DNA of 64,000 bases from an uncultured Candidatus Saccharibacteria bacterium (GCA_964628585.1 CAZVMH010000002.1:33751-97750), one strand, 5' to 3'; shown: positions 774-54,083, counted from the first letter of the stretch. The notes: generated by a model from the letters alone, not told the origin. A program made the numbers and translations.

Positions 774-2537
774 TTATAGTTGTGAATTGATTTCAGAAAG
801 AGCCTGATTAATTGGCAAGACAGTTAATCCGCTTGTTGATAGTGCTGCCATTTGAGCATTAAAGTTGGCAGGAGTTGTTTCATATTGGGTCGGGCTGGTT
901 CCAATTCTATGGTATACAATTACTAACCAAGTTTTGTCTTGTTTTGCTTTTTGCACCCACGTATTGAATTCTGCAAGAGTAGTGGTGTTGGTCATATTTT
1001 GAACCCGAATATTGTAGGAATTAAAATTATCTTTTGAATTATAACCCTCGTCTGTGCTTCTGTGGGAGCTATAATATTTTTTTATTTCAGTAATTACTCT
1101 AGTATCGTATTCCCCATATGGAGTAGCAAAACTTTTTATTGTGCCAGATCCAATAATTCCTTCTAAATATGTTTTAGAAGTTGAAAGTTCATTATCTATT
1201 TGGCCCGTGGTCAGTGTCATTAGATGGGGATGGGTAATTGAATGGGATCCAATTTCGTGACCGGCGGTTGCGAAAGCTTTTATTTTATATATTTGATCAG
1301 TCTGACTTTGAAGGTATGTGGTGGCTAAATATTGAGTCGATTTAAAACCGTATTGATTAATCACCGGTAAAACTGAAGTATAATTGTCTTCCCAGCCGTC
1401 ATCAAAAGTTAGTGTTACAAGGGGGCGATTGAACCCAACAATTGTATGAGCAGTTACGCAATAATCATCTGTAATTAGAAAACCAACAGAAGAAATAAAA
1501 TGCAAAACAGTAAATTGTTTTACTCCAATAGGAATTGTAAAGACATCAGAATATTTTTTCCAACCACTCGATGGGTCTGCACTGCCAAGACCGATGTATT
1601 CTTCACTACCATTATTTTTTATTAACCTAACTGCAATTTGAGTCGTCACATTAGATTGGTAATAATCTGTAAACAAGTAGTCGCCAGGCACGGCAGTCTG
1701 GGGGTTATAAGCCCATTTAGCATCACCGTCGGTGTAACTTGTCATTTGAACTTTTACACTGTGAGAGCCAGTGTAACCAGTACTCAAATAGCTGAATTGG
1801 GCGGTATTGGTGCCCCACTTTTCCGTTTGCCAGTCCAAGGGAGTGGCTCCGTTTGTATTTTGTTCAACAGAACTATTTGGAATGATATTGGTGGTTACCG
1901 GTGGAACAGGAGGTACGGGTGGAAGTGGTGGTTCTGGCGGAGTCGGAGGGGTTGGAGGAGTTGGTGGCTCTGGGGGAGCTGGAGGAGTAATTATATCCTT
2001 TTCGCCAAAATAAAAATTATCCGTTGTTAAATATCCAACTTTATTAATCAAGTGTAAAATAGTAACTTTGCTGGCATTTGTTGGAGCAGTAAAATTAAAG
2101 CTAGCGTTTTTCCATGTTGTTGATTTGGCAACTGTGCCGAGTTGAATATATGATTCTTTACCTGTTTGATCAAAAATTCTGGCAACAACCTTGGTTTGGA
2201 CTGAAGACTTATAATAATCACTAAAAATATAAACCTTGTTTGGTGTTACAGAGATTGGATCAAAGTACCATTTAGCATCTCCGTTTTTAAACGAAGTCAT
2301 ATTAATATTTAAGCTTTTTGTTCCATCCTGTGAACCGCTTGTTTGGTATGAGAATGTTGCTTTGTTGGTGCCCCAGCGTTCCGTTTTCCAGTTTAAAGGT
2401 GATTTTAAATCGGCAGTACTTGATTCTACTGAAGAATTTAATATTAAATTTGCGCTTTGTGCTTGAACGCTCTGAGTCACACAAAAACTACCCAATAAGA
2501 TTAACAACCCTGTCAGGGTAAAAAATAGTTTTTTCAT
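774..2537 (-). CDS. Secreted polysaccharide deacetylase (NodB homology domain) with two N-terminal carbohydrate-binding-module-like beta-sandwich repeats and a Pro-rich linker
   Basis: Signal peptide MKKLFFTLTGLLILLGSFCVTQSVQA. Duplicated 'W.TE.WGTN.A.FSY...GDAKWY' modules. Linker PPAPPEPPTPPTPPTPPEPPLPPVPPVPP. NodB motifs TFDDGW and HSITHPHL. Confidence 0.8.
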   Translation of the reverse strand: MKKLFFTLTGLLILLGSFCVTQSVQAQSANLILNSSVESSTADLKSPLNWKTERWGTNKATFSYQTSGSQDGTKSLNINMTSFKNGDAKWYFDPISVTPNKVYIFSDYYKSSVQTKVVARIFDQTGKESYIQLGTVAKSTTWKNASFNFTAPTNASKVTILHLINKVGYLTTDNFYFGEKDIITPPAPPEPPTPPTPPTPPEPPLPPVPPVPPVTTNIIPNSSVEQNTNGATPLDWQTEKWGTNTAQFSYLSTGYTGSHSVKVQMTSYTDGDAKWAYNPQTAVPGDYLFTDYYQSNVTTQIAVRLIKNNGSEEYIGLGSADPSSGWKKYSDVFTIPIGVKQFTVLHFISSVGFLITDDYCVTAHTIVGFNRPLVTLTFDDGWEDNYTSVLPVINQYGFKSTQYLATTYLQSQTDQIYKIKAFATAGHEIGSHSITHPHLMTLTTGQIDNELSTSKTYLEGIIGSGTIKSFATPYGEYDTRVITEIKKYYSSHRSTDEGYNSKDNFNSYNIRVQNMTNTTTLAEFNTWVQKAKQDKTWLVIVYHRIGTSPTQYETTPANFNAQMAALSTSGLTVLPINQALSEINSQL

Positions 2538-2586
2538 TTTTTCCTCCGCTATACTAATAAATTTAATTTATGAAAATTAATACAGT

Positions 2587-3858
2587 CTAATAATTGTACT
2601 GAGAACGAAGATGGGTGCGATGCAAACGCCGATTTACCAATAATACTAAAATTAAAAACAAAAAATTTGAAGTCATATAGAGTTTGCTTAAAAGGTTTGT
2701 GCCCATGATCGAGTTTATTAAAGACTCAAATTTTTTCTTTGAAAAAATAAAACCAGTCGATTTTAAACTTTGGTCAAAACTGGCGTTTGTCTGTTTGGGA
2801 ACGGTTGTATTTTCTACAGAACTTTCTTTTTGCTCATTCAATACTTGGTCATCCACATTTTCTACTACCAACTGAAAGCTCTTAGAACCCTTTTTGTTGA
2901 TAGATTCAGAAGATTTGCTACTACCAGTTGAGGGTGTATTTGTGGTAGTTGAGCTAGGAGTGCTTGTGCCATTTACACCATTTGAAAAGGCAATTCTTGA
3001 TTTTTCACTAGAATTAATTCTCCAGTCAGTCTCTTTGTTAATTGAAAACCAAGTAAAGCCCTGAATTCTTGTAAATTTATTTCGCAAGTCAGAAAACATT
3101 GCTGTTATCCAAGCTGCTTTATCGCCACCGCTTTCAGCAGAAGCAACTTCCATAATCAGAACATTTTTAGAAGATATGCTGGTAATCTCATTGTATGATT
3201 GTCCAAAAACTTCTGAAAATGATTGCCAGACACTCCATGACTGGGTTGTACCCCAGTTATAGCCATCTAGCCCGACAAAATCAACATACTCATCTCCAGG
3301 GTATATCTGACCATACGAACAGGGATCACCGTAAAAACGAACATTCGGTGACCATATCCATGATACATTTGTGACTCCATTATTTCGAAAACGATTTATA
3401 ACATATCGCCAGAAAGTCTTATGACTTTCTGTTGTGTTTCCATTGTTTGTTACTCCCCAAGGAGCCCACTCCGAATTCATTTCTGGAGCAAGGCTTATTC
3501 TGACCGGGGAACCAAAACTTTTTACGCTAGCCGAAAATTGATCGAGGTATGCATCATATTGACCTGCCGTAACATTATCATACGAGACGCCATTGCCTCC
3601 TATTTGGGGTTGCCATGTTAGTTCAGGAATACAACCGTGATCAGAAAATCTCTTGGCTATATCAACATAAAAAGGGTCCGACCAATCTTCGTACCATTTA
3701 CATGAGTTAAATTTTACTCCCAGGTCTGTTTCAAATCGACTCAAAACAGAGATATCAGAAGAAGAGTTCGGGAGAAAAATATTTGATTCCAAATTCCTAC
3801 CTTGTGTGTGAGGTGTTTTTATTGCAGTAGCAACAACCAAAATGGCAACTAAAAACAA
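2587..3858 (-). CDS. Secreted glycoside hydrolase, clan GH-A-like (GH26/GH5-like), with a C-terminal Ser/Thr-rich tail
   Basis: N-terminal signal/TM. Candidate acid/base and nucleophile glutamates in 'LAPEMNSEW' and 'LIMEVASAE', with aromatic-rich (beta/alpha)8-like spacing. Family assignment is tentative. Confidence 0.5.
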   Translation of the reverse strand: MFLVAILVVATAIKTPHTQGRNLESNIFLPNSSSDISVLSRFETDLGVKFNSCKWYEDWSDPFYVDIAKRFSDHGCIPELTWQPQIGGNGVSYDNVTAGQYDAYLDQFSASVKSFGSPVRISLAPEMNSEWAPWGVTNNGNTTESHKTFWRYVINRFRNNGVTNVSWIWSPNVRFYGDPCSYGQIYPGDEYVDFVGLDGYNWGTTQSWSVWQSFSEVFGQSYNEITSISSKNVLIMEVASAESGGDKAAWITAMFSDLRNKFTRIQGFTWFSINKETDWRINSSEKSRIAFSNGVNGTSTPSSTTTNTPSTGSSKSSESINKKGSKSFQLVVENVDDQVLNEQKESSVENTTVPKQTNASFDQSLKSTGFIFSKKKFESLINSIMGTNLLSKLYMTSNFLFLILVLLVNRRLHRTHLRSQYNY

Positions 3859-3951
3859 AACACGGAAAAGAGCTTTATTGATATACCCTCCAAAAACCCT
3901 CCTTGGTTTTCTAGATCAAGAATATAATGACACGGTAGCCGGTGTCAAGTT

Positions 3952-4983
3952 TTATGAAGCAGTAGGCGCAACCGAGTATCTATTAACTTTGTTCCAAAGA
4001 AGATTTTTCTTATCTCCAAATAGAACTCTAAAAATAGAATAATAGAAACAAAATATATTAATACAATAAAAAATCGAGAAAAGAGGGATAAAGGGGATAA
4101 TCCAATATTTTTTTTCAATGAATGAAACCAGTAGGGCAATAGCAGAAATTGTTATAAGGGTAGCTACAAATAAATGAATAAAAATAAGTGGACGCATAAT
4201 AGCAAGCGCGAAAGTAAGAATCCAAAGCATGTTATCAAAAAGTAAAAAATAAAGTTCTAAATTAAATTTTGAATTTGGTTTATAGAGTTTATGTAAAAAA
4301 ATGTTTTGCCAAGTTCCTGTATTCCAACGCAAAACTTGCTTCCAATAGTCTTTAAAAGTCATTGGGTCTTGGGTCGTAACAACAGCAAGAGGCGCATAGA
4401 TAATCTGACCCAATTTTTTCTTATGAATTTGAATTGTGAGGTCAAAGTCTTCAGTTAAAGTTGAGCTTTGTAGATCAAGTTTTTCTAAAACATCACTTCT
4501 ATAAAGAGAGGCGCAACCAGGCGCGACAGTAACTGCACTAATAAAATTTTGAGCGGCTTTATAAATTTTGTGAGAAACACAGTATTCATAGGTACGGAAT
4601 GCGCTAATTAATCCTTTTCTGTCAGAAGTCACTGTACCAACGATTAGAGCGGGTTTTTGTTTTTTATATTTTTTAATTTCACTCATGAAATTTTCAGACA
4701 AACGACTGTCGGCATCAGAAAAAAGAACGTATGAATATCGTTTTGTTAAATTGCGACTCTTTATTAATTTTTTTAGTGCCGTTGCTTTTCCGCAATTGTT
4801 CCTAAGATTCATTACGTTCACATTGGCTTTTTTTGCAATAGACGCAGTTTTGTCAGTTGAGCCGTCACTTACAACAAAAATATCATCAGGACTCAGAACT
4901 TTTTTCATAGCCTGCAATGATGCGCCAATTACTTCCTCTTCGTTTAGAGCGGGAACAACAACACAGAAAGTTTTTTTAGCCAT
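3952..4983 (-). CDS. Family-2 glycosyltransferase, processive synthase type (PgaC/IcaA/cellulose-synthase-like), with C-terminal TM helices
   Basis: GT-A motifs VVPALNEEE, SDGSTD and DADS (DxD); Q(V/L)xRW motif 'KQVLRW'; C-terminal hydrophobic helices. ATG at 4983 preferred over the upstream TTG at 5028. Confidence 0.8.
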   Translation of the reverse strand: MAKKTFCVVVPALNEEEVIGASLQAMKKVLSPDDIFVVSDGSTDKTASIAKKANVNVMNLRNNCGKATALKKLIKSRNLTKRYSYVLFSDADSRLSENFMSEIKKYKKQKPALIVGTVTSDRKGLISAFRTYEYCVSHKIYKAAQNFISAVTVAPGCASLYRSDVLEKLDLQSSTLTEDFDLTIQIHKKKLGQIIYAPLAVVTTQDPMTFKDYWKQVLRWNTGTWQNIFLHKLYKPNSKFNLELYFLLFDNMLWILTFALAIMRPLIFIHLFVATLITISAIALLVSFIEKKYWIIPFIPLFSIFYCINIFCFYYSIFRVLFGDKKNLLWNKVNRYSVAPTAS

Positions 4984-5332
4984 TTTTATGAAGCAATTTT
5001 CTGTATGATTTTCTAAAGAAAACCACAACGCTTGCTACAGCTGCGATTAAAATGTGACCTCCGAAGCTTGGTCCACCCATAGGTAGGTTGTACATAAGTT
5101 CCTTTCGAACAAAACTTGTTAATAAAAAATGAGGGGGAAAACCCTCATTTAATCCGATGGTTTGCATAGTACACTCATTAGATCTTTTTGTCAACAATGA
5201 AAAAAATATTTTAAAAAATAGTTAATACTTTTTCATACTTTTTTAAAACATGGCATATGGAAAATATTTGCTATTTAAAATTATTAAGTCCTGCTATTGA
5301 CAAAACTTATTTCTTTTGGTAAACAATGACTA

Positions 5333-7027
5333 ATGATTAAGAAATTACTTTTATTGATATGTCTAATCGCCTTGCCCTTTTGCGGACTAGATTTTTCACG
5401 TGCTTTTGCAGCCAATCCAAATCTAATTGCCAATCCCTCTGTAGAAACATTGGACTCAACTAAACTTTCTCCAGTCGATTGGTCTTTTAATAGTTGGGGA
5501 ACGAACACAACAACTCATAGCGTTACTACTACTTCACGACAAGACGGAGTGCGGAGTGTTACTATTAATATGCTAAGACGTACAAGTGGTGATGCTAAGT
5601 GGTATTTTAAACCAGTATCAGTTTCTGGGGGCACAGAATACACCTATACTGACTACTACCATTCTAATATTCCAACTGAATTGGTGGTTCAATTTACTCA
5701 TCAGGGCGGAAGAGTCACTTATCAGAGTTTGGGAACGGTTCAAAAAAATCTGGGCTGGGGCAAGTCAGATTTTTCTTTCACCACACCCCAATATGCAATA
5801 AAGGCAACTGTATTTCACTTAATTAATAAAATCGGATACTTGGGAATTGATAATTGTTATCTTGGCAAGAAAGAACCTACACTCCCAACTCCACCAGTAG
5901 TAATTACAGATAATGTCCCAAATAATTCAGTTGAAGAATCTGTTAACTCAGAACCCCGAGACTGGCTAAAAGGCGGATGGGGCAACAATACTGCAACTCT
6001 TTCATATTTAAATGAAGGACACACAGGAACAAAAAGTTTAAAAACTGAAATCACCAATTATGTCGATGGTGACGCCAAATGGTATTTTACTCCACAAAAA
6101 TTGCTTCCAAATACTACTTACCAATTTTCTGATTTTTATAAATCAGATGTTGCTAGTAGCGTTGTCCTACAAATAGATAAAACAGATGGTACAACTAGCT
6201 ATCAATATTTGAAAAATGCCGAGGTAGCTTCTGTTTGGACACAATACAAAGACACTTTTACAACACCAGCCGACGTTTCTACTTTAACTGTTTTCCATCT
6301 GATCGCTTCAGTAGGTTTTTTAATAACTGACGATTTTTCAATAACTCCTTTTGTTGCTCCTGCTTTCAACCAGCCAATAATTGCCATAACTTTCGACGAT
6401 GGTTGGGAATCGCAATACACAAACGGTCTATCAATTCTTTCAAAATATCAGATATTGGCTACATACTATTTAACTTCAAGTTTTCTTGAGCAACCAGAAT
6501 ATTTAACAAAACTAGAAGTGAACTCTCTCAAAATGTCTGGTGGTGAAATTGCTTCTCATTCTGTGACTCATCCATTTTTAACACAGTTGCCTTTGTCACA
6601 AATGCTCTCTGAATTAACTCAGTCTAAAAATGATTTAGAAAATGATTTTGGTAAAATTAACAGTTTCTCTGTTCCTTACGACGATTATAACGATACAGTA
6701 ATTAATTCAATTAAAACTCTTTATTCATCTGCTCGTATTTCTGACACAGGGTATAATAATCTAAATAATTTTGATGCGTACAGACTTAAAACTCAAAATA
6801 TTTCAAGTACTACAACTGTAACTGAATTAAATAGTTGGATTGCGGAAGCAAAAGTCAGCAAAAGTTTGCTAGTGCTTCTTTATCACCAAGTAGACAATAA
6901 TGGTGGAGCTTATAGTGTAACTCCAGAAAACTTTGATCTTCAAATGTCTGCCATCAAATCAAGCGGGATTAAAACCAGTACTATCAGCCAAGCCATGGCA
7001 GAGCTAACTCCACAATTAATAAAGTAA
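5333..7027 (+). CDS. Secreted polysaccharide deacetylase (NodB) with two CBM-like repeats; paralog of 774..2537
   Basis: Signal peptide. 'W.FNSWGTN...GDAKWYF' modules twice. NodB motifs ITFDDGW and HSVTHPFL. Same architecture as the first deacetylase but without the PP linker. Confidence 0.8.
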   Translation: MIKKLLLLICLIALPFCGLDFSRAFAANPNLIANPSVETLDSTKLSPVDWSFNSWGTNTTTHSVTTTSRQDGVRSVTINMLRRTSGDAKWYFKPVSVSGGTEYTYTDYYHSNIPTELVVQFTHQGGRVTYQSLGTVQKNLGWGKSDFSFTTPQYAIKATVFHLINKIGYLGIDNCYLGKKEPTLPTPPVVITDNVPNNSVEESVNSEPRDWLKGGWGNNTATLSYLNEGHTGTKSLKTEITNYVDGDAKWYFTPQKLLPNTTYQFSDFYKSDVASSVVLQIDKTDGTTSYQYLKNAEVASVWTQYKDTFTTPADVSTLTVFHLIASVGFLITDDFSITPFVAPAFNQPIIAITFDDGWESQYTNGLSILSKYQILATYYLTSSFLEQPEYLTKLEVNSLKMSGGEIASHSVTHPFLTQLPLSQMLSELTQSKNDLENDFGKINSFSVPYDDYNDTVINSIKTLYSSARISDTGYNNLNNFDAYRLKTQNISSTTTVTELNSWIAEAKVSKSLLVLLYHQVDNNGGAYSVTPENFDLQMSAIKSSGIKTSTISQAMAELTPQLIK

Positions 7028-7043
7028 TTTTTCAGACAAATAT

Positions 7044-7077
7044 TAAAAAACGGCTGTCACTAAGCCGTTTTTTTTTG
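7044..7077 (+). terminator. Rho-independent terminator (AACGGCT...AGCCGTT plus T9)
   Basis: 7-bp GC-containing stem followed by a T-run immediately after the deacetylase stop. Confidence 0.75.
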
Positions 7078-7149
7078 TGTTATAATATTTTAAAATTTCG
7101 GTTGCATATCATAACTCCTCATACTTTTTATACCTCGAAGTTCGCAATA

Positions 7150-7179
7150 TTGACACGCTAATTTTTACAGGTTTATACT
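7150..7179 (+). promoter_or_regulatory. Sigma70-like promoter: -35 TTGACA, 17/18-nt spacer, -10 T(T)ATACT
   Basis: Consensus -35 hexamer with appropriately spaced A/T-rich -10 upstream of the SipW/TasA-like operon. Confidence 0.5.
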
Positions 7180-7240
7180 AATCAAGGTGATAAAAATTAA
7201 TCGCTAGGGTTAACAATGAAAAAAATAGCGAAGTATATCA

Positions 7241-7281
7241 AAAAATAACTAAGACGAATTTTTGTCTTAGTTATTTTTTTA
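7241..7281 (+). terminator. Intrinsic terminator/attenuator hairpin in the operon leader (11-bp stem ATAACTAAGAC/GTCTTAGTTAT, T7 tail)
   Basis: Perfect 11-bp stem with a U-tract, about 70 nt upstream of the first operon gene and downstream of the putative promoter. A 10-codon mini-ORF (MKKIAKYIKK) precedes it. Confidence 0.55.
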
Positions 7282-7352
7282 GAACGGACTTCCATTGAGG
7301 AGGGTCGATGGTCCGTCGCGTCATAGAACATTAAAAATAAAGAAGGAGGGGA

Positions 7353-7877
7353 ATGTTAAAAAAGTTATTATTTGTGATTGCTTTAGTAGCAGTCGGTGCC
7401 GGTTCGTATGGAATCGCCCGAGCATACTTTAGTAGCTTAACACCCGCTAATGCAACTGAAACATTTACTGCTGGGACAATCAGCATTAGTCTCGAAAGGA
7501 ATGATGCCAATAGCTCAGCATCAATTGGATTAACTAATTGGATGCCAGGAGACGAGGCATGGGTAGCATATGATGTGAGAAATACCAGTACAGTGCCAGT
7601 GACATTAACCGGGTATATTAACGGTACTTGGGGCGCTCCTTTAGGTGATCAAATGGTTCATGTTGTAGCTGCACAGTACTGGGATGGTTCAACTTGGCAG
7701 AACATGGCTGCTCCGAATGGCACATTTTCTTACGCTGGTCCGGTACCTGCAAACGGTGGGATAGTAACGATGAGAATGAAAGCAAGGTTTGAATCAGAAG
7801 CAGGAAATGATTTTCAGGGAAAAACATACACGGCTAGTATCTTTGTTACGGCACATCAAATAGGCGAGCCAATTTAA
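7353..7877 (+). CDS. TasA/camelysin-like secreted protein with SipW-cognate-class signal peptide
   Basis: N-terminus MLKKLLFVIALVAVGAGSYGIARAYFSSLTPANATETFTAGT (AYFS...N..F.AGT signature); strong RBS AAGGAGGGG. Confidence 0.7.
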   Translation: MLKKLLFVIALVAVGAGSYGIARAYFSSLTPANATETFTAGTISISLERNDANSSASIGLTNWMPGDEAWVAYDVRNTSTVPVTLTGYINGTWGAPLGDQMVHVVAAQYWDGSTWQNMAAPNGTFSYAGPVPANGGIVTMRMKARFESEAGNDFQGKTYTASIFVTAHQIGEPI

Positions 7878-8047
7878 ATTGATAGGTTTAAAAATTGACT
7901 TTCTAAATCCCGACAGAACTTTGTCGGGATAAGTGAGAAACAATTAGTAAGGTGAGGTCGATACCTTATATACAAAATTAATTCACTCTGTGAAATAATT
8001 CGCAAAGCGGATTTGAAGAACAATTTCACTAGGGTAAAGGAGTAATT

Positions 8048-8599
8048 ATGTTTAAAATAGTAAAAAGTTTAGTTTTAGTTTTTGCTTTTGTAGTAATGAC
8101 AGCTGGTGCAACGCAGGCTGTATTTACAAGCCAAGCTTCAGTTGTCGGCAATACCTTTGCTACAGGCAGTTTAGAAATTAGAATCAACGGTCAGGCAAGC
8201 ATACCAGGCTTTAATGTTACAAATGCTGCTCCTGGACAATCACAATCAGGGCAATTTGGTGTTAATAACTATGGTCAACCCTGGTTTGCTGGTCCTTCAA
8301 CATTGGCTGCAAAAGATTTAACAATTTCAGCAGTTATGACGGGTGGAGACGCAAGCCTTTTTAACAAGTTAGACGTAGTTGTTGAGGCTAATCGAGGATG
8401 GCCAACTTGGATGCCAGTTTATAGCGGTCCTCTTTCTGGTTTAGCTAACGCTGACTTATTGGATGATCGTTGGTCAGAGCTTATTGCTGGAAGTTCAGAA
8501 GATGTTCGTTATACAGTAACTTTGCCGTTGGATGCTGATGATTCATATCAAGGGCTTTCAACAACTTTCGATTTTGTAGTTGATGCTGCTTCAAGCTAA
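8048..8599 (+). CDS. TasA/camelysin-like secreted protein with SipW-cognate-class signal peptide
   Basis: N-terminus ...MTAGATQAVFTSQASVVGNTFATGSLEIRING; RBS AAGGAG; followed by a GTCCCGATG...CATCGGGAC hairpin. Confidence 0.7.
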   Translation: MFKIVKSLVLVFAFVVMTAGATQAVFTSQASVVGNTFATGSLEIRINGQASIPGFNVTNAAPGQSQSGQFGVNNYGQPWFAGPSTLAAKDLTISAVMTGGDASLFNKLDVVVEANRGWPTWMPVYSGPLSGLANADLLDDRWSELIAGSSEDVRYTVTLPLDADDSYQGLSTTFDFVVDAASS

Positions 8600-8655
8600 G
8601 GGTTTTTAGTCCCGATGTAACATCGGGACAATAAAGCTTTTAATTTAAGGAAAAA

Positions 8656-9261
8656 ATGAAAATTTACAAAATTTTAACCTATCTGATTTACTCGCTACTA
8701 ATTATTTGTTGTCTTCTTTTAATATTATCCCGTTTTTCAATATCCGGAGTCAGGCTTTTTTCAGTTCAGTCGGGGTCAATGGAGCCAGAAATTAAAACTG
8801 GTAGTATGGTTGTTGTAAAAACTGCTTCGAATTATAACCTAAACGATGTTATTACTTATTATGATCGTACAGATAGTAAAAAAACTGTTACTCATAGAAT
8901 AGTGGACAAGAAAACAACTGGCAGTATAGAACAAATTATTACAAAAGGTGATGCCAATGGTTCAAATGATTCAATTGCAATAACTAAAGATCAAATTATA
9001 GGAAAAGTGCATTTTTCAATTCGATATCTCGGTTATCTTGTTGGTGCGGCAAAAACAACGGTTGGTTTTATTATTTTAATTGTGATCCCAGCCACAATTA
9101 TTATTTATGAAGAAATAAAAAAAATCCATCACGAAACAAAACATATTATTAAAAGAAGACGCGAAAGAAAATTAAACAAGGAATTAGATAAAAACAAAAA
9201 CAATTTAGAAAATGAAAAAATGGTTGATAATATAAAAGGAGAAAACAATGAAACTTCTTAA
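8656..9261 (+). CDS. sipW: Signal peptidase I, archaeal/eukaryotic type (SipW-like), with a C-terminal TM and a KE-rich tail
   Basis: N-terminal TM, then catalytic-region motif 'SGSMEPEIKTGSMVVVK' typical of SipW-type S26 peptidases; C-terminal TM and basic tail. Confidence 0.75.
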   Translation: MKIYKILTYLIYSLLIICCLLLILSRFSISGVRLFSVQSGSMEPEIKTGSMVVVKTASNYNLNDVITYYDRTDSKKTVTHRIVDKKTTGSIEQIITKGDANGSNDSIAITKDQIIGKVHFSIRYLGYLVGAAKTTVGFIILIVIPATIIIYEEIKKIHHETKHIIKRRRERKLNKELDKNKNNLENEKMVDNIKGENNETS

Positions 9262-9883
9262 GTTATTAGTTTTTGTTTTTGGTTTGTTATCTGTGACATC
9301 TTTTGCCACAAATGCTTATTATGGTGACCAAGCGACAGTTTCTGGCAATGAATTCTCCACAGGCACTTGGAGCCTCCCAGAAGCAAGGGTAGTAATGAAT
9401 GAAGTTTACTACGATGTTGATGATGTGCATGGTGGCATGGAAGACGAATGGATTGAGCTTTATAATGCTGGAAATGCTTCAATCAACATTAAAGATTGGT
9501 ATTTAGAAGACAATATGGGTTATTCCGATAGAGAAGTTATTAATCAAAATTATATTATTGAACCTGGTCAGTTTGTTCTGCTTTCAGCCAATGCTAGTAT
9601 CTGGAATCAGTATTGGGGAATTGTACCAGAAAATGCAGTAAAAATTGCTTTAGGTGGAACGAGAATATTTTCTGGTCTTGGAAATAATGGGGACAGAGTA
9701 ATTCTTAAAAATGATTCAGGTCTCATTATTGACCAACTAAGTTATGGAACCGATATAACTGTTTTTAACCCTTCAATTCCTGATGTGCAAAAAGGACATT
9801 CAATTTCTAGAAATCCAGCCGGATTCGATACCGATGTGGCGAGTGATTTTATTAACCTAACAATGCCAACGCCAGGAGCATAA
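9248..9883 (+). CDS. Secreted lamin-tail-domain (LTD) protein with SipW-cognate-class signal peptide
   Basis: N-terminus ...TNAYYGDQATVSGNEFSTGTW. LTD signature 'NEVYYDVDD...EWIELYNAGNASINIKDWYL...GQFVLL...GDRVILKNDSGLIIDQLSYG'. Confidence 0.7.
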   Translation: MKLLKLLVFVFGLLSVTSFATNAYYGDQATVSGNEFSTGTWSLPEARVVMNEVYYDVDDVHGGMEDEWIELYNAGNASINIKDWYLEDNMGYSDREVINQNYIIEPGQFVLLSANASIWNQYWGIVPENAVKIALGGTRIFSGLGNNGDRVILKNDSGLIIDQLSYGTDITVFNPSIPDVQKGHSISRNPAGFDTDVASDFINLTMPTPGA

Positions 9884-10849
9884 ATGAAACTATTATCAAT
9901 CAAAAACTTCTATACGGGGGTACTAATTCTGTTATGTTTATTTTTTGCTAATATCTCTACTGTTTCAGCACAAATCTTAAATGTTGGTAATTTGGATATT
10001 GAATACGAAGGAACGGGAGCACTTTTTAACGCTACTAATATTTATCCTGGATATAGTGAAATTAAAACTATATCAGTAAAAAATACTGGACGAGTGGCTC
10101 ATTCTTTTTCTATTGCCGTTACAGGAGAATTGGGGGGACTAGCCAATGTTCTGCAGATTGAACCGAGAAATTTTGAGACAGGTGCACCCATTTGGAATAA
10201 AACAATAAGCAATATTGCTAAAGCGCCCAGTTCAGATGTGATTTTGGGTTCAATCGCTCCGAACGAAACAAGAAAGGTTAGCATTGTAGCGATTTTGCCC
10301 GAAAGCGTTGGTAATGAGTATCAGGACAGCACTACTTTTGCTTTTGATTTTGTAGTTGGGAATGAAAGTACAGACCAAAAAGAACCAAGTGAAAGTTCTG
10401 GTTCTGCGTCTGTCATAACAACATCAATAGATATTAAAAATGTTTTTACTTTAGGTCCAGCACCAATCTCTAGTAATGAAGTTGTAAAAACCGATACTCC
10501 AGAAGTGGCAACAAGCTCACAGACAGATATTGTTGAATTGGCATCGGCCAATAATGAGGGTAAAACGGAAGGTGCTACAATAGACAATAAGCCGGTTTGT
10601 TTTTGGTGGTGGGTCTTACTAGCTCTTTTGGCGGTGGTCTTAATAATATATGGGGTGATAGTTCGAAATTGCAAAAATTGGTTTTTCTTGTTCTGGCCAG
10701 TTTTCTTTGGTGCCACTACTTATGTGGTTCACTGGATTTTCCACGATTATTACAATCCTTCAAAGTGGTGTAATTGGTGGTTTATTGTCATACTTTTAGC
10801 AGAGCTTGTTATATACTATATAGTTAGGAGCAGAAGAGAAGAAGATTAA
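9884..10849 (+). CDS. TasA-like secreted protein with a C-terminal Trp/Cys-rich double-TM anchor
   Basis: Signal peptide; beta-rich domain similar to the upstream cargo proteins. C-terminus CFWWWVLLALLAVV...KWCNWWFIVILLAELVIYYIVRSRREED. Confidence 0.55.
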   Translation: MKLLSIKNFYTGVLILLCLFFANISTVSAQILNVGNLDIEYEGTGALFNATNIYPGYSEIKTISVKNTGRVAHSFSIAVTGELGGLANVLQIEPRNFETGAPIWNKTISNIAKAPSSDVILGSIAPNETRKVSIVAILPESVGNEYQDSTTFAFDFVVGNESTDQKEPSESSGSASVITTSIDIKNVFTLGPAPISSNEVVKTDTPEVATSSQTDIVELASANNEGKTEGATIDNKPVCFWWWVLLALLAVVLIIYGVIVRNCKNWFFLFWPVFFGATTYVVHWIFHDYYNPSKWCNWWFIVILLAELVIYYIVRSRREED

Positions 10850-10863
10850 ATTGGTTATATTCG

Positions 10864-10892
10864 AAAAAAGACCCATTAGTCGGGTCTTTTTT
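10864..10892. terminator. Bidirectional terminator (A6-AGACCC-loop-GGGTCT-T6) between convergent genes
   Basis: Hairpin flanked by an A-run and a T-run. Confidence 0.75.
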
Positions 10893-10907
10893 CATTTATT
10901 TAAATAT

Positions 10908-12587
10908 TTACTTTATCAACAGCCCGCCCCATTCAACTGCTGTGAATCCAGTTCTCTTCTGGGTGGTTAGAGTTTGAGGTTTAATATCGTATGGTGTGTT
11001 CAAACCTTTGAAATCAAGAAATACTCTAATAGTAGTATCTGGCTTTGGGCTAATGGAAAGGGGAGCGAGTCTGTTCATTTGCTCTGTACCAAACCAAGTT
11101 AGACGAACAAATGGAGTAGTTGGCATTTTAGGAAGCCAGAACTCCATAAAGTCAGCCGATTCTTTTTGGTTCAAACCCAATTTAGCTAAATGATCTTTTA
11201 GCGTTGAAGCAATGTCTTCTTTTTTAACAATAAATCCGGCATCTATATTTGGATAAAGGCCCTGTCCCTGTCCTTCCCAGAAAAGATAGGGGAAGGTCTT
11301 ACCATCAACTGTCAACTGTCCGTTTGGCTTTGCAATTGCGGTCCATCCATCGTTATAAATTGGATCGCTTTTGGTAATATCGGCACCAACTTTAACAGTA
11401 ACCCTGGTTTTTTTTGTGGGGTAAAGGTAAACAACTGGCTTGCCACATTCAGCCAGAGCGCCGTAGTTAGTATTTAAATACAAGTTATAATCGCCAAAAG
11501 AATCTTTCCAAACAGTGACTGGGTTTTTGGCCCAAAATGCGTCGATAGCCAGAACGTTTGATTCTCGTCCTACAGAATAAAAACCGTGGAGAGATTTAAA
11601 AAGAGCTGAAGTCGCATCTTTAAAAGTGTAAATTTTATCTCCATTTGAAGCGGTGCCATTTTCTTTTAATAAACTTACAACGGCTTTGGCATCTGCCACA
11701 ATTGAGTTACCACCACGTATTCCACAGGAAGCGCTCATATGTTTTACGGTCGCATCTTTATTAACCGTACCATCGGCAAAGGTAAAAGCAGGAATACCGT
11801 TGTCTGACATAAAAGGCTCTTTGGCGCTATAACTGGTAACCGTACCATCGGCGTGTTTAAGATAAAGAGTTCTAGTAACTACAGCTGGATTGTCTTTATC
11901 TTCAACGGAAGTTGTTCTGTAAATATAGCCATAAACTGTCTCGGCTACTTTGGTTGGGGCTGAAAGTAATGAATAAAAATCTTCTGTCCAACCTTTAGTA
12001 AAGTTTATGCCATCGGGCGTTGAAACGATATCGGGAGAACTAATCGAACCATAAACTGTAGTAGCATCAATTTCAGCGTTCTGAATTATGTCGGCTGCTT
12101 CAGTAGCGCTGACAGAGGAATTTTTTGCTAGATAATAATATTTTCCAGCTGTGTCTTTGCGAAATCGAAGCATCGCCAAATCTCCCATACCATATGGTGT
12201 TCTTACTAGAATAATAGAGCCCCCTCCAGAGATGGTAGCAATGTTATAATATTTCGTATCACTTTCAGATGCCATTCCATTGGCGTCTGCTTTGATTAAA
12301 TTTAAACTAGCAATTTCAGTAGGGTCGTTCCATGTCACGCCAGCATCAACAATCAATTTTGCCGTGCTTATTGTTGTGGTTGTAACTGGTTTGGTTGTGG
12401 CGGTTGTGGTAGTGGGGATCGTGGTGGTTATTTCCAGGGGTTTTGAATTTTTCCAATAATAATAACCGTTAACTCCAGCCAAAATAATCATTATTGGGAT
12501 ATAAATCCAGCGGAATACCTTAGTTGCCCTATCTACTCCTTTTTTCGGATTTTTTACCTCAATCTCTTCTGTTTGCTCTTCGTTCAT
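10908..12587 (-). CDS. Hypothetical membrane-anchored extracellular protein with a Thr-rich stalk
   Basis: N-terminal TM (IYIPIMIILAGVNGYYYW) and a TTTIPTTTTATTKPVTTTTIST linker; no recognisable catalytic motif. Confidence 0.5.
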   Translation of the reverse strand: MNEEQTEEIEVKNPKKGVDRATKVFRWIYIPIMIILAGVNGYYYWKNSKPLEITTTIPTTTTATTKPVTTTTISTAKLIVDAGVTWNDPTEIASLNLIKADANGMASESDTKYYNIATISGGGSIILVRTPYGMGDLAMLRFRKDTAGKYYYLAKNSSVSATEAADIIQNAEIDATTVYGSISSPDIVSTPDGINFTKGWTEDFYSLLSAPTKVAETVYGYIYRTTSVEDKDNPAVVTRTLYLKHADGTVTSYSAKEPFMSDNGIPAFTFADGTVNKDATVKHMSASCGIRGGNSIVADAKAVVSLLKENGTASNGDKIYTFKDATSALFKSLHGFYSVGRESNVLAIDAFWAKNPVTVWKDSFGDYNLYLNTNYGALAECGKPVVYLYPTKKTRVTVKVGADITKSDPIYNDGWTAIAKPNGQLTVDGKTFPYLFWEGQGQGLYPNIDAGFIVKKEDIASTLKDHLAKLGLNQKESADFMEFWLPKMPTTPFVRLTWFGTEQMNRLAPLSISPKPDTTIRVFLDFKGLNTPYDIKPQTLTTQKRTGFTAVEWGGLLIK

Positions 12588-12616: not shown

Positions 12617-14335
12617 TTAATAGCTTATAGTCATTTTATCATATTCAATTTTTATTTTCTCGTTCTGGTCGATGTCTTTTAATATTGTGTCAAGAACTTT
12701 TTGTTTAGCTGTACCAGTTTGAAGTTGGGGTTTAGTATCTTTTTGAATTGTGGGAAGAACAATTAGTTCCAATTTATCTGCCGTAAACTTACCAGCCACA
12801 ATTAAGCCTTGTTGTGTTTCAGGAGAAAAATATTGATCAAAAAGTAGATTGCCCAAAGAATAAACAATCGGGACATTTTTGTAAATTTCGATATCTTGGA
12901 CAACATGAGGATGTGAACCAATAATTAAATCAGCACCGGCATCTATCCAGCTTTCAGCCAAGTTTTCTTGCGCTTGTGAATGAGTTTGTTCATATTCATT
13001 GCCCCAGTGAGGATAAATAACTACTTTGTTGCCTTTTTTCTTTTCGGTTTTTATTAAATTAAGATCTAAGTCGGTATTTAAAGTGTCAATGGTTATAATG
13101 GAGGCCTTAATCCCATTGCCAGAAAATTCTTTAATTGAGTCAGCATCAACTCTGGCGTCTTGACCAATAGGGGCGATATCATTCTTTTTCAATAAATCAA
13201 CAGTGTAGCTCAAACCTTTCTGTCCGTTGTTAAGAGTGTGATTATTGGCTAGACTAACTGCGTTCAGATGCATCCACTTTAAAACATCAATAGTTTTTGG
13301 AGGGAAATTGAAAACTAAACTGTGATTATAATCGGGTTCTCTCGGCACAGAGCTAATTGGTCCCTCTAAGTTAACTATCTTAAGATCTGTTCCCCAAAAA
13401 GTTCTTTCACCTAGATTTTTCATAACATCCATTAATTTTTCACCCTGGAAAAAGTATTCAATTCCTCGATCAAACATCATATCGCCACCAAAAGTAAGAG
13501 AAAAGGATTGTTCAGATGTTGATTTATTGCCTTTTTCATATAAACCCATCACATGAGTGGTGGACTCGACATCAAAATTATTACTCAAAAAACCTGAATT
13601 GGTATTGGCAAAAAGAGAAAATTTTTCTGTTTTCTCTAATTTAGCCCAAGAAAGGGCTACATTCAGAACTTCAGGCGAATCCGTTTCGGCGAGTAAAATA
13701 TTATTTATATCTAAATTATTAAGTGCAGAAATTGTAAAATCGTCATGAAGTTGAGCTAAATTGGCCGGTTGGTAATGCGAAAAATCGACAGAAGCAATAA
13801 AAAGAAGGTTTTCATTTTCTTTTTGCAAAGTAGAAATCAAATTATCAAGATCAGTTGTTTTTGTATTACTTTTAATTATTAGGGGCACGATATTAGCCTT
13901 AGGAAAAGTATTTTCAATGTCGGCCAAAATATTTTTAATGCCGTGTTCTCGTTCAAAAGCTGAATTTTCATTACAAGCAATTTTTTCTTCCACTAATTTG
14001 GTAATTATCGTTTTCTCGGCAGAAATCTTACTATCAGATAAATCCCAATCCTGATCAGTAGTCTCAATATTGCAGGATCCAGTTTGAAAATGATTTGTTG
14101 AAGCTAATACTATCGTTTTTGGATTCGTCTTGTCTTTAATCGATGCAAAAAATTCTGCTCTTTTGTCTTTTACTAGGTCGTGATGGGGGACTATTATAGT
14201 AGAGATGGTGGGTTTGCCCGCCACGAGCGGAGTTGAGGAGTTTTTAGAAACTGACCGACTGCAAAAATAGGCGATGGCGACTATTAAAGCTAAAAAGAAT
14301 ATTGCGATCCAAATTTTGGGGGAAGATTTTTTCAT
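12617..14335 (-). CDS. Fusion protein: N-terminal MEMO1/AmmeMemoRadiSam-B-like domain plus C-terminal CapA/PGA-capsule-synthesis metallophosphatase domain
   Basis: N-terminal TM. 'IIVPHHDLVKD...STNHF' in the N-terminal half. 'FGGDMMFDRGIEYF...LANNHTLNNGQKG...GSHPHVVQDIE...YSLGNLLFDQ' CapA-family motifs in the C-terminal half. Confidence 0.65.
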   Translation of the reverse strand: MKKSSPKIWIAIFFLALIVAIAYFCSRSVSKNSSTPLVAGKPTISTIIVPHHDLVKDKRAEFFASIKDKTNPKTIVLASTNHFQTGSCNIETTDQDWDLSDSKISAEKTIITKLVEEKIACNENSAFEREHGIKNILADIENTFPKANIVPLIIKSNTKTTDLDNLISTLQKENENLLFIASVDFSHYQPANLAQLHDDFTISALNNLDINNILLAETDSPEVLNVALSWAKLEKTEKFSLFANTNSGFLSNNFDVESTTHVMGLYEKGNKSTSEQSFSLTFGGDMMFDRGIEYFFQGEKLMDVMKNLGERTFWGTDLKIVNLEGPISSVPREPDYNHSLVFNFPPKTIDVLKWMHLNAVSLANNHTLNNGQKGLSYTVDLLKKNDIAPIGQDARVDADSIKEFSGNGIKASIITIDTLNTDLDLNLIKTEKKKGNKVVIYPHWGNEYEQTHSQAQENLAESWIDAGADLIIGSHPHVVQDIEIYKNVPIVYSLGNLLFDQYFSPETQQGLIVAGKFTADKLELIVLPTIQKDTKPQLQTGTAKQKVLDTILKDIDQNEKIKIEYDKMTISY

Positions 14336-15644: not shown

Positions 15645-15781
15645 TTTGTAAAGCATGAAGTTTATAAAATAAGTCATCAGTTACTTATTATTTGCGGAAT
15701 ATTGAATTGTTTAATATAATAGAACTAATGCACATTACACGCAATTTTTGCTGTATTTGAATCGCTATTTAAGTGAGGGAA

Positions 15782-17701
15782 ATGAAAAAATTGTCGTTGA
15801 CAGATATTCTAAAAACACGGACCAAGGTCAAGGTGATCGGCTTGCTTTTGGTATTTCTCTTAGCAACGCTGTGTTGGCAGTTTGTTATATCAAAAAATCC
15901 AAAAAAAAGTAGCGCTGCCACAACAATAAGTAGCAGCAAAATAGTTGGCTCTAGCAAGGAGTACGACGGTCAGGATTTAATTATCAGCGGAGCCTCGACA
16001 GTTGTTGTTCTTGACGGGGAACACAATTTTTCTTCGTTAACTATTGAAAACGGTGCTACTTTGACTCATACCACTGTTAGTCCCGAAGGCAAGATTAGTT
16101 ACAAGGATAAATTTGCTGTTCGTTGGACGGGGTACATTAAAGTGCCGATAAATACAGACTTAAGGATTGATACACACAGTGATGCTTATAACGATTTCCA
16201 ATTTGGGATAAAGGAAGTTGGCAACTCAGCATATTTAAAATCTACCCCTGGCTGGACGAAGGAGGCATATTCAACCGGTCATTTGGGCAATGCTACTGTA
16301 AAGATATACCAGATTGAGATAGACTATAAGCATCTTTTTCAAATGAAAAAATATTATTCAGAAGGGATAAAGCTTAGTTATCACGACAACGCCAACGGAA
16401 CGGTGCGTTTAGTTGAGGCAAGCATGCTTTGCCAGGACGCGAGTTGTAGCCAGACGGGGGGGCTGGCCGGAGAGTATTATGCATTTACAACTCTTGCGCT
16501 ACAAAATAGTGCGAACCCAATTGTTGATAGCAACGAACCATTTTCTAAATATGGTTGGTTGGTTAAAACTCGAACAGATGCTCAAGTAAATTTTGACTGG
16601 AGCGCTATTGCTCCGCTTGTTTTTGAAGAGGAGGGCGGGCTAAAATTAATGGTTACCAACGCGTTTAATTTAGACAGTGGCGGCAAAATCGACGTTTCAG
16701 GTAAGGGTTATGCTGGGGGAGATTTCAATGATTTGAATAGCAATAATAACTCTCCGGCGTACGGGCCCGGAGCCGGGCAGGGCCTGTATTTGAACCCTAC
16801 TCAACAAAAACCAGGAGATGGTTCCGGTGCCGGTTACGGGGGGGCTGGCTCGTTAGGAGATAGAGACAGGGACAATAATCCTGTAGGAGGCACATATCCT
16901 AATCCGTTTGATCAGTATACTACCTATCTTGATTATGGTTCTGGAGGAGGAGGAGGATATGATGGAGGACCTACAAATGAGTCCAAGGGTAGCGGCGGTA
17001 ATGGTGGTGGACTTGTTTATATTAAAGCTTCGGCCATAAGAATTCTATCTAACCAGTCATCTATTACCGCGGACGGACAGAGAAGCAATATTCATCTATG
17101 GGAAGATGATAACTGTGCCAGTGGTGGTGGCGGATCGGGTGGCACAATCTGGCTGGCCTCTAATAACATTAGTTTTCCAGCAGGAGGCTCTCCATTTAAC
17201 ATATTTGGAGCTTTTGGTGCGAAAGATGGGAGGGCAGAAGTAGGTTCTTTGTCAATTTTCGCCCAGATATCGAGTGATATCGTAAATCTTTCAGTTGCTG
17301 GGGGAAGGCCAGCCGATAGGAATGGTAACTTTTGTACTGGCGGTCAATGCGGTGGCGGTGGCGGTGGCGGAAGAATAATACTTGGTATCTACAATAATTA
17401 TAGTGTACAGAAATCCTTATCACCCATTAGCAGAACAGGTGTTAGTCCTGCTACAAATTTTAACCCTTACACTTTGCAAAAAGGGGACAAGATTGGAGTA
17501 ACACTTAAAATTGGAGGTAGTGCTACTAATTTAATTATAGATGACAACTGGTTAGCAACAAGTAATTTAACTCCGAATTATATTTGTGAACCGGTATCAG
17601 ATTCAGGTCCTCTTGATCCTCTTGCTTGGAATACCAATCCGTTAATTTGGAAGAGCATAAGTGGCGGTAGTGAAATTTATTACGAATGCATAGTAAAATA
17701 A
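15782..17701 (+). CDS. N-terminally anchored large surface protein: PA14 domain plus Gly-rich beta-solenoid-like repeats plus a conserved Cys-containing C-terminal domain
   Basis: TM VIGLLLVFLLATLCWQFVI. PA14 signature 'FAVRWTGYIKVP...LRIDTHSDAYNDFQFGI'. Repeats GSGGGGGYDGG, ASGGGGSGGTIW, GGQCGGGGGGGRIILG. The C-terminal ~110 aa are shared with 17711..19234. ATG 15782 preferred over GTG 15773 (RBS GAGGGAA). Confidence 0.65.
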   Translation: MKKLSLTDILKTRTKVKVIGLLLVFLLATLCWQFVISKNPKKSSAATTISSSKIVGSSKEYDGQDLIISGASTVVVLDGEHNFSSLTIENGATLTHTTVSPEGKISYKDKFAVRWTGYIKVPINTDLRIDTHSDAYNDFQFGIKEVGNSAYLKSTPGWTKEAYSTGHLGNATVKIYQIEIDYKHLFQMKKYYSEGIKLSYHDNANGTVRLVEASMLCQDASCSQTGGLAGEYYAFTTLALQNSANPIVDSNEPFSKYGWLVKTRTDAQVNFDWSAIAPLVFEEEGGLKLMVTNAFNLDSGGKIDVSGKGYAGGDFNDLNSNNNSPAYGPGAGQGLYLNPTQQKPGDGSGAGYGGAGSLGDRDRDNNPVGGTYPNPFDQYTTYLDYGSGGGGGYDGGPTNESKGSGGNGGGLVYIKASAIRILSNQSSITADGQRSNIHLWEDDNCASGGGGSGGTIWLASNNISFPAGGSPFNIFGAFGAKDGRAEVGSLSIFAQISSDIVNLSVAGGRPADRNGNFCTGGQCGGGGGGGRIILGIYNNYSVQKSLSPISRTGVSPATNFNPYTLQKGDKIGVTLKIGGSATNLIIDDNWLATSNLTPNYICEPVSDSGPLDPLAWNTNPLIWKSISGGSEIYYECIVK

Positions 17702-17710
17702 AGGATTAAT

Positions 17711-19234: not shown

Positions 19235-19244
19235 AGAAGAAACA

Positions 19245-45443: not shown

Positions 45444-45801
45444 TAGTATTGGGCAAGTAAATTGTATTTTAATAAGACGAGGAGTGGGATCCTTGTTTTT
45501 TTGTTTCCAATCTGGCTGGGAACTGGGGAAACTTAAGATTCTGGGCTTATAGGTTGGTTGGCATTGATGGCCCCTTAAAAAATGTGGGCCTGGCCTAACC
45601 AACTTCCACTATCCTACGCCTTTTTCCTGGCTGGGTTAGAAACTAAAAGTGGCAAAGGGCGAAAAACAGCAATTGAATTTGCAGTTTTTCGTCTCTTGCC
45701 AGAATCATTCTGGCAGAGTTGACATAGTAAACCCTCCTCACCGGAGGTTACATATGTGGCACATCCACAATTTAAGACAAAAAGAAAGTGAGGAACGAGA
45801 A

Positions 45802-46857: not shown

Positions 46858-46871
46858 AGGAGGGACACACC

Positions 46872-47588
46872 GTGAGGAAGTTCTTGGTTGTAGCAATCCT
46901 GCTCTGCATCGTCTCATCGGTGATGGCAGAGGACTTCTCGGTCACGCTCCAGAAAGCGAAGCCGTGGCCGGGAAAGACCGTTTACGTTTCCGGAATGCAG
47001 TCTCGGACTGCGCCGGCGAACAGCCTGACCGCGGTCCAGTTCTGGACCAAGGGTTGGATCACCGGCACAAATGGTTTGCCGATGACCGTTTACGCTGTCC
47101 CACGGCAGCAGGAAAACGGCATATGGTGGGCGATCTGCCAGGTGTCTGCCTACTGCGGGAACCCGGCAAAAGGTGGCTGGCTCGAGCGCAAAGAGGAGCC
47201 GAAGCCCTTGACCGCAGCTGTCTCGCAGGTGGAAACGCGGGTAGAGACGCGTACAGAGATCAAACTGGTGGAAGTTGAGGTCGAGAGGCCCTGTCCACCA
47301 GCTCTGCTCCCACCGCCGATGGTTGGGGGGCGAGAGGTGTCTCCCGGGTACCCTATAATATATGGGACCCGAAGCGAGAGATGGGTGCCTCTTGCGGTGC
47401 CGTTCGTGTTTTCGTACGAACCGCCCAAGTACGAGCGGCACTGTCCGCCGCCCCCGCCACCGCCGACCTGCCCGCCCGGGGGGTCTCCACCCCCCGAGCA
47501 GAACCCGAGTGGGTGTAATGTTCTCCCCACCGACGGGGGGAGTAACACCCACGTACCTCCTGTTCCGCCGCCTCCTAGCTCACGCTAG
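46872..47588 (+). CDS. Secreted protein with a Pro-rich C-terminus (PPPPPPTCPPGGSPPPEQ...VPPVPPPP), GC-rich island
   Basis: RBS AAGGAGG; signal peptide FLVVAILLCIVSSVMA. Confidence 0.6.
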   Translation: MRKFLVVAILLCIVSSVMAEDFSVTLQKAKPWPGKTVYVSGMQSRTAPANSLTAVQFWTKGWITGTNGLPMTVYAVPRQQENGIWWAICQVSAYCGNPAKGGWLERKEEPKPLTAAVSQVETRVETRTEIKLVEVEVERPCPPALLPPPMVGGREVSPGYPIIYGTRSERWVPLAVPFVFSYEPPKYERHCPPPPPPPTCPPGGSPPPEQNPSGCNVLPTDGGSNTHVPPVPPPPSSR

Positions 47589-53907: not shown

Positions 53908-53936
53908 TTGACTAAAGGGGAATATTTTGATATATT
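53908..53936 (+). promoter_or_regulatory. Sigma70-like promoter TTGACT-17-TATATT for rplJ-rplL
   Basis: Near-consensus hexamers with a 17-nt spacer. Confidence 0.6.
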
Positions 53937-54030
53937 TGATACATCCGCAGACAGTAGGTGCCCTAAAAGGCTTAATTACCTGCCGAGGAAAAAACTAGAA
54001 TCATGAATATGTAATCATTATTTTAGATTT

Positions 54031-54058: not shown

Positions 54059-54083
54059 TTCATTATTGAGAAATTGGAGCCAA

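Follow-up and report, generated by a model that had tools for sequence, protein, structure and literature searches.

A candidate operon for a cell-anchored TasA-type fibre with its own signal peptidase and a lamin-tail-domain protein in an uncultured Saccharibacteria bacterium

In TasA of Bacillus subtilis, residues 28-38, located right after the SipW cleavage site, form the donor strand by which the beta-sandwich of the following subunit is completed. The first strand comes from TapA, whose N-terminus resembles that of TasA; because its immunoglobulin-like (Ig) fold is complete, TapA initiates the filament and cannot sit within it (PMC9674648, PMC10151520). In the haloarchaeal tat-fimbriae (tafi), TafC is proposed as tip and activator, TafE as adapter and, with TafA, as pilin, TafA as shaft and TafD as peptidase. 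The terminator and anchor is proposed to be TafF, which has a jelly-roll domain and, at its C-terminus, three membrane helices; these roles come largely from AlphaFold models (PMC11821415, PMC12337348). In bacterial abpX loci, cell-wall anchor proteins of the LPXTG or SLH kind are predicted to become part of the fibre through strand complementation (bioRxiv 10.64898/2026.01.04.697558). Here we describe five genes (A to E) in 64,000 nucleotides of DNA from an uncultured Candidatus Saccharibacteria bacterium (GCA_964628585.1 CAZVMH010000002.1:33751-97750; this whole stretch is referred to as the window). We consider it about 60% probable that these genes specify a donor-strand-exchange fibre of the TasA type, anchored to the cell, and a signal peptidase dedicated to it.

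The five genes occupy positions 7353-10849, all in the same direction. The operon and its borders comprise the following features:

7045-7073, terminator-like hairpin closing the upstream gene; 5' border of the unit
7150-7179, + strand, promoter-like site, TTGACA-18-TATACT, 11 of 12 consensus matches, the best in 6900-11100
7353-7877, + strand, gene A, 174 amino acids (aa), probable TasA-superfamily subunit
8048-8599, + strand, gene B, 183 aa, probable TasA-superfamily subunit
8656-9261, + strand, gene C, 201 aa, archaeal/endoplasmic reticulum (ER)-type (SipW-like) signal peptidase I
9248-9883, + strand, gene D, 211 aa, signal peptide, donor-strand-like segment and lamin-tail domain (LTD)
9884-10849, + strand, gene E, 321 aa, TasA-like domain and predicted membrane helices
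10863-10893, + strand, terminator-like hairpin after E, 12-bp stem with 5 G-C pairs, then a T-rich tail

The promoter-like site sits between the hairpin of the upstream gene and the start of gene A. It is a consensus match only, and the total number of promoter-like sites in the region was not above that of shuffled sequences. The initial annotation had let the operon start at 7150, which is exactly the first base of this site and so marks a probable promoter, not a coding start. The hairpin at the 3' end is common to E and the convergent downstream gene. C and D overlap by 14 nucleotides and E starts at the base directly after the D stop codon, an arrangement that suggests co-translation. The N-termini MLKKLLF, MFKIVKS and MKLLKLL carry no RR (twin-arginine) motif, and the signal peptides are of the Sec type.

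The signal peptidase C was compared with three family models. It scored 106.3 bits against the archaeal model TIGR02228 (sigpep_I_arch; cutoff 51.85) and 35.7 bits against the bacterial LepB-type model TIGR02227, under the cutoff of 47. Against the Bacillus SipW equivalog NF046067 it reached 108.8 bits (cutoff 190); because of this shortfall we regard it as the same class as SipW and not as the NCBI equivalog. In an alignment of C with nine relatives from related loci, S39-G-S41-M-E-P44, T79-H80-R81 and G98-D99-A-N101...D105 were invariant in all ten sequences. An SxSMxP box with a conserved His (Ser-His) is the arrangement of ER-type signal peptidases, SipW included, and LepB uses a Ser-Lys dyad. 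Model scores and alignment thus place C with the archaeal/ER-type signal peptidases I, with Ser41 and His80 invariant, and not with LepB. The archaeal-type peptidase with an SGSMEP motif proposed in the initial annotation is therefore confirmed in both respects, and the LepB-type enzyme that it had named as the contrary outcome was not found. Hydrophobic segments at residues 1-35 and 124-157 correspond to N- and C-terminal membrane segments. From the co-location of C with the cargo genes and from their TIGR04088-type signals, we infer that C removes the signal peptides of the neighbouring cargo.

Both A and B have a signal peptide followed by a donor-strand-like segment (ARA followed by YFSSLTPANATETFTAGT in A; AVFTSQASVVGNTFATG in B). 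The Pfam family PF12389 (cutoff 22.5 bits) gave 21.8 bits for A, 20.9 bits for B and no match for E. At the level of families, PF12389 was matched by 28 of 30 aligned A relatives (best E-value 1.6e-19) and by 7 of 29 E relatives at E<=0.01. A search of 1.84 billion representative proteins with A returned 135 matches at E<=0.001. B has 84 relatives, many of them 60-84% identical and most carrying a precomputed PF12389 assignment. Names given to B relatives at NCBI include 'TasA family protein' and 'SipW-dependent-type signal peptide-containing protein' (Patescibacteria, Andersenbacteria, Berkelbacteria). Single-sequence searches of the PDB with A and E were uninformative. The A-family profile found TasA (8aur, E 1.4e-6) and AbpX (9sj2, E 8e-5), the B-family profile found TasA (5of1/8aur) at about E 3e-4, and the E-family profile reached TasA structures only at E 0.14.

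Profile-profile comparison by hhalign joined the A and B families over the whole domain (99.8% probability, E 3e-28) and likewise the B and E families (98.7%, E 1.5e-16). The D and B families were joined over the first 47 columns only, which hold the signal peptide and donor strand (98.3%, E 1.5e-14). On these values the homology is far beyond chance. The AlphaFold2 model of B (predicted local distance difference test score, pLDDT, 87; residues 20-43 unstructured) has donor-strand fibre proteins as its top fold matches, namely the cannula protein CanA (9h8b), FimA (6swh), the Sulfolobus thread (7pnb) and PapA. The best PDB match of the E model is the TasA fibre, by two methods. The predicted fold is thus a jelly-roll or beta-sandwich like that of TasA and donor-strand fibre subunits. 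We concluded from profiles and models that the domains of A, B and E are homologous to one another and belong to the TasA superfamily. The initial annotation had listed four TasA/camelysin-like cargo proteins; the assignment holds for these three and fails for D, whose domain is not TasA-like. A cargo without any TasA-like fold, the outcome that would have spoken against that annotation, is not what the A relatives (PF12389), the A and B profiles (8aur/5of1) or the E model indicate. A B-like gene lies 5' of the peptidase gene in all related loci, and B is likely the major shaft subunit.

D consists of a signal peptide, a donor-strand-like segment (TNA followed by YYGDQATVSGNEFSTGTW) and a complete LTD. 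It matched the Pfam LTD family PF00932 at 62.4 bits (cutoff 34.3), with residues 45-167 covering positions 5-108 of the 109 in the model; the LTD with EWIELYN...GDRVILKN that had been noticed in one cargo protein is therefore real and nearly full-length. The NEVYY, EWIELYN and GDR motifs are invariant in the D family. All 37 D relatives share one architecture, which is a signal peptide, the sequence (T/S)(N/G)A-YFSDxAxVxxNxFSTGTW, a short linker and the LTD. The SipW-dependent signal model TIGR04088 (cutoff 19 bits) gave 16.4 bits for D and no match for A, B and E (A and B at E<=0.1); it was matched by 15 of 24 D-family members, with a best E-value of 1e-6. NCBI and JGI name relatives of B and D as SipW-dependent or SipW-like signal-peptide proteins. 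Only the first ~45 residues of D resemble TasA-family proteins. D gave no TapA-family match in NCBIfam, and the D-family profile found no solved relative in the PDB, TapA included. D may be called TapA-like by architecture only, having a donor strand and a predicted complete Ig-like domain. We propose that it is probably the initiator and tip protein, with the LTD as adhesin; an initiator-plus-adhesin role has been suggested in the literature for AbpB.

E carries a signal peptide, a TasA-like domain at ~29-165, a low-complexity linker at ~166-237 and three predicted Trp/Cys-rich membrane helices, modelled at 240-259, 266-289 and 298-320. The Trp/Cys-rich tail on the last cargo protein was thus correctly recognized at the outset, with three modelled helices in place of the two then counted. 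The distribution of positive charges (positive-inside rule) suggests an N-out, C-in orientation. Across residues 238-320 in 29 relatives, C239, W241 and C296 are invariant and W242, P272, Y290 and F300 nearly so. Since C239 and C296 both lie on the predicted outer face, a disulfide between them is possible. JGI labels E 'cytochrome oxidase subunit 4'; we rejected this label, as no family search supports it.

The cargo proteins differ at their N-termini. In A, B and D the motif A(Y/V)(F/Y)...(N/E)xFxxG(T/S) stands directly after the hydrophobic signal segment. A hidden Markov model built from the 18 donor-strand columns of the B family (threshold >=10 bits) was matched by 17 of 24 D-family members, by none of the 29 E-family members and by none of the six E-like proteins of other loci. 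In the B/E profile alignment, the signal peptide of E itself fills the columns of the B donor strand, and in the models ~24 unstructured residues separate the signal helix from the first core strand in B, vs. ~6 in E. The SipW-cognate motif had been assigned to all four cargo proteins in the initial annotation; A, B and D have it and E does not. Its absence is the informative feature of E. By sequence and models, the locus would encode one donor-only protein (D), two donor-plus-acceptor proteins (A and B) and one acceptor-only protein (E).

This pattern is hard to explain without polymerization, and it bears on the possibility that there is no fibre at all and that a dedicated peptidase simply serves four separate substrates. 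Candidates for such substrates would be proteases of the camelysin kind, an LTD protein acting as adhesin or enzyme, and a membrane protein; alternatively, the genes could form a system resembling ribosomally synthesized and post-translationally modified peptides (RiPPs). The Pfam family is indeed named Peptidase_M73, JGI labels relatives of these proteins as RiPP-like (in IMG, 'ribosomally synthesized peptide with SipW-like signal peptide'), and the fibre is a prediction from genes and models. However, histidine is absent from B and occurs only twice in A, neither protein has HExxH, and a zinc protease is implausible on these grounds. The metalloprotease reading was therefore rejected, and B should not be called a 'camelysin metalloprotease' after its Pfam family. 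The RiPP reading was rejected as well: no RiPP-modifying enzymes were found in the surroundings, and the label used by JGI is a legacy name of the family. The characterized TasA-superfamily members considered here (TasA, AbpA, AbpX and the tafi pilins) are donor-strand polymers. We judge four unconnected substrates to be highly improbable.

The same order of genes, with a TasA-like protein first, then the signal peptidase, the LTD protein and an E-like protein, is found again in about nine independent loci, most of them patescibacterial: L005/L006 (an 807-kb contig), L007 (842 kb), L008 (a Saccharibacteria metagenome-assembled genome (MAG), cut upstream), L022, L031, L088, L089 (Berkelbacteria GCA_026397235.1), L090 and L091. 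Conservation of gene order in related genomes, a check suggested in the initial annotation, thus holds for these four kinds of gene. The overlap of the SipW-like and LTD genes and the abutment of the LTD and E-like genes are also kept in related loci, and the flanking genes are unrelated among them. Among 80 GTDB loci retrieved by LTD similarity (with a 10-sequence D alignment as query), four have a SipW-like gene and most of the 80 encode unrelated large LTD proteins (Chloroflexota, Cloacimonadota and others); the LTD alone is thus common and the cassette is the specific feature.

The anchor of the E-like protein varies among these loci. Three Trp/Cys-rich helices are present in the window, L007, L088, L089 and L022, and one helix in L008. 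In L005 and L090 the anchor is a classical sortase signal, LPETG or LPATG, that comes with a hydrophobic stretch and a KKK tail. The type of anchor is swapped while the position and the acceptor-only character are kept, which argues that cell attachment is the conserved function. Larger LTD proteins are found in L022 and L031, where the LTD is preceded by an N-terminal region resembling PF12389 and by Ig-like spacers; L022 also has an fn3 spacer in its E-like protein. By analogy, these extra domains may be elaborations of the kind seen in tip adhesins and stalks.

L022, which is a GTDB MAG contig labelled Pseudomonadales and probably mis-binned, has three SipW-like paralogues within 8 kb (1877-9443), each adjoining a TasA-like gene, and encodes an LTD protein of 585 aa. 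Just 3' of the cassette in L005 (9610-11424) and L090 (5444-7429) lies a gene for a secreted protein of 604-661 aa that has a membrane helix at its C-terminus and a tail rich in Arg. The L090 copy contains an LTD and Big_13, and the L005 copy, which was not scanned, has no recorded Pfam match. This protein has no counterpart in the window.

The variable anchors are also relevant to the question whether E belongs to the fibre. In a released matrix fibre of the Bacillus style, D would nucleate fibres of A and B, and E would stand outside the fibre as a membrane factor assisting the peptidase or assembly, or as an independent surface protein. The operon lies within an exopolymer island (detailed below), echoing the eps-plus-tasA matrix logic of Bacillus; the flanking exopolymer genes, however, are not conserved in related loci. 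The membrane module of E is conserved beyond the needs of a passive anchor, and accessory membrane proteins of dedicated signal peptidases (DUF5305) have been described in TasA-superfamily loci. On the other hand, E retains a full TasA-like acceptor domain homologous to B, the E-like proteins consistently have no donor strand, and an LPXTG signal or a single helix replaces the membrane module elsewhere, which argues for conservation of attachment and not of a specific membrane function. We regard a released fibre with E outside it as unlikely.

For the cell-anchored fibre that we favour, the domain identities, the presence or absence of donor strands, the gene order and the variable anchors are direct observations. 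On this basis the following mechanism is proposed. The four cargo proteins would be exported by Sec and their signal peptides removed by the SipW-like C. D would then donate its N-terminal strand to an initial A or B subunit, in the way that TapA serves TasA; as a protein with a donor strand and a complete Ig-like LTD without an acceptor groove, it would occupy the distal tip and display the LTD, probably as an adhesin. Each complemented A or B would release its own N-terminal strand into the next subunit, building the shaft. E, an acceptor fold without a donor strand, could not extend the chain; it would accept the last strand and end the fibre, with its three membrane helices holding the fibre on the cell. 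The composite anchored fibre put forward in the initial annotation gains strength from the gene order in about nine loci and the interchangeable anchors on the fourth gene, and we found no support for the surface layer suggested there as an alternative. The DNA or host binding that was also suggested there is a possible function of the LTD.

The same final architecture could also be built from the base, with E taking the first strand, subunits adding distally and D capping the fibre. Its topology does not differ from that of the preferred model; the evidence from domains and synteny therefore fits in full, and subunits secreted beside E would meet E first. On the other side, a TasA subunit is thought to be unable to free its own strand before its groove is complemented, and the TapA initiator accelerates assembly (PMC9674648, PMC10151520). 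In the tafi model the tip likewise acts as activator and the anchor as terminator, and distal growth would need diffusion of subunits to the fibre tip. Base-first assembly is unlikely, and tip-first assembly ending on E is preferred.

Several points weigh against the anchored, tip-first fibre. Taken singly, A, B and E all fall under the PF12389 cutoff, and their assignment comes from family-level and profile evidence. Signal-peptide cleavage sites were placed by eye, as a crude predictor gave inconsistent sites that were too noisy. The model of E is moderate overall (mean pLDDT 67.8), and the contacts between subunits are deduced from genes and single-chain models. A could be either an adapter or a second shaft subunit. 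The strong Cys/Trp/Pro conservation suggests that the membrane module of E does more than anchor. Finally, the E-like protein of L091 has neither a membrane segment nor a sortase signal and carries only Ca-binding-type repeats.

The closest described system is tafi. Both encode a dedicated signal peptidase with the pilins and have two pilin-like subunits, both have a tip proposed to initiate by strand donation, and donor-strand exchange would proceed in both without chaperone or usher. The layout of E matches that of TafF exactly, as compared by described architecture only. The present system differs in being bacterial and in having Sec signals without a twin-arginine motif, whereas the tafi pilins use the twin-arginine (Tat) pathway. 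Its subunits are of the PF12389 type and the tafi pilins are DUF1102 (no match to DUF1102 was found at E<=0.1). Its tip combines a donor strand with an LTD, in contrast to the pilin-like and laminin-G-like domains of the tafi tip; no TafB regulator or TafG (DUF5305) gene is present, and the peptidase has two membrane segments.

With tapA-sipW-tasA of B. subtilis the locus shares an ER-type peptidase of the SipW kind encoded among its substrates and overlapping the accessory gene, a TasA-family major subunit with an N-terminal donor strand, and an accessory protein (TapA; D here) with a donor-strand-mimicking N-terminus and a complete Ig-like domain that is unable to accept a strand (PMC9674648, PMC10151520). 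The differences are the gene order, the two TasA-like subunits, the score of C under the SipW equivalog cutoff, and the LTD of D, which has no detectable sequence relation to TapA. The acceptor-only, membrane-anchored E is extra here, with no described Bacillus counterpart.

The AbpX/AbpA archaeal bundling pili and bacterial abpX loci also share TasA-superfamily fibres, co-located signal peptidase I, minor subunits and predicted tips with this locus (PMC9245690; bioRxiv 10.64898/2026.01.04.697558). Their LPXTG/SLH anchors have a parallel in L005 and L090, where the E-like protein carries an LPXTG signal. They differ in that the AbpX-associated peptidase is reported with ten membrane helices vs. 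two here, in the reported taxa (Bacillota, Chloroflexota and archaea), and in that no LTD tip is described there.

In chaperone-usher pili, FimH or PapG forms the tip, FimA or PapA the rod, and PapH is the terminator; these pili need a periplasmic chaperone and an outer-membrane usher. The model for genes A to E follows the same logic, in which assembly begins with the tip, donor-strand exchange builds the shaft, and a terminator unable to pass on a strand anchors the pilus. Chaperone-usher pili are unrelated diderm systems, and neither chaperone nor usher is encoded in the operon.

In Patescibacteria (the candidate phyla radiation, CPR), host attachment and recognition are largely unknown beyond type IV pili. 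A literature search found no account of this cassette in Patescibacteria and nothing for the combination of lamin tail domain and SipW. Neither TasA nor SipW was mentioned in the CPR papers examined, searches for TasA or the LTD in Patescibacteria yielded nothing specific, and the sole link found between TasA and Patescibacteria was a remark that PF12389 occurs in the phylum. A compact, conserved cassette with a clear division of labour offers a model of a second type of surface fibre in CPR that can be tested directly. It would extend to bacteria the scheme of tip, shaft and three-helix anchor, a scheme put forward until now only for haloarchaea and only from structure prediction. That one type of anchor replaces another in nature is comparative evidence for a terminator/anchor role that is genetically unexamined in any TasA-superfamily system. 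A further, speculative extension is that the cassette is a widespread Patescibacteria fimbria for episymbiosis, with the LTD tip binding a host-envelope component or extracellular DNA, the acceptor-only base serving as a general modular tether, and the Cys/Trp module perhaps coupling termination to the peptidase or Sec. This is rather unlikely as a whole; if true, these ultra-small bacteria would have two attachment organelles, this fimbria and type IV pili.

The exopolymer/envelope island around the operon covers window positions 774-7027 and 12617-14335 and includes:

774-2537, - strand, secreted polysaccharide deacetylase
2587-3858, - strand, GH26
3952-5028, - strand, PgaC-like GT2
5333-7027, + strand, secreted polysaccharide deacetylase with a CBM_4_9 module
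12617-14335, - strand, Memo+PGA_cap fusion

Further downstream, three large consecutive open reading frames (ORFs) of 642, 507 and 654 aa at 15773-21170 may encode additional surface proteins; the third has a Laminin_G_3 (concanavalin-like) domain and the first two gave no Pfam match. The segment at 45649-47588 has a GC content of 0.555 vs. a background of ~0.37 and may be foreign DNA. Its two ORFs (402 and 238 aa) gave no Pfam match, and the 402-aa ORF contains the Pro/Ala/Val repeat PAPKVEVPVPAPAPVPKVEVPVPAP. At 61251-61341, ARAGORN reported a 91-nt 'tRNA-???' with an odd anticodon call, and Rfam gave no tRNA there at the gathering threshold. An ordinary ribosomal protein L10 leader (RF00557, 73.7 bits) was found at 53927-54065, 5' of an rplJ-like ORF.

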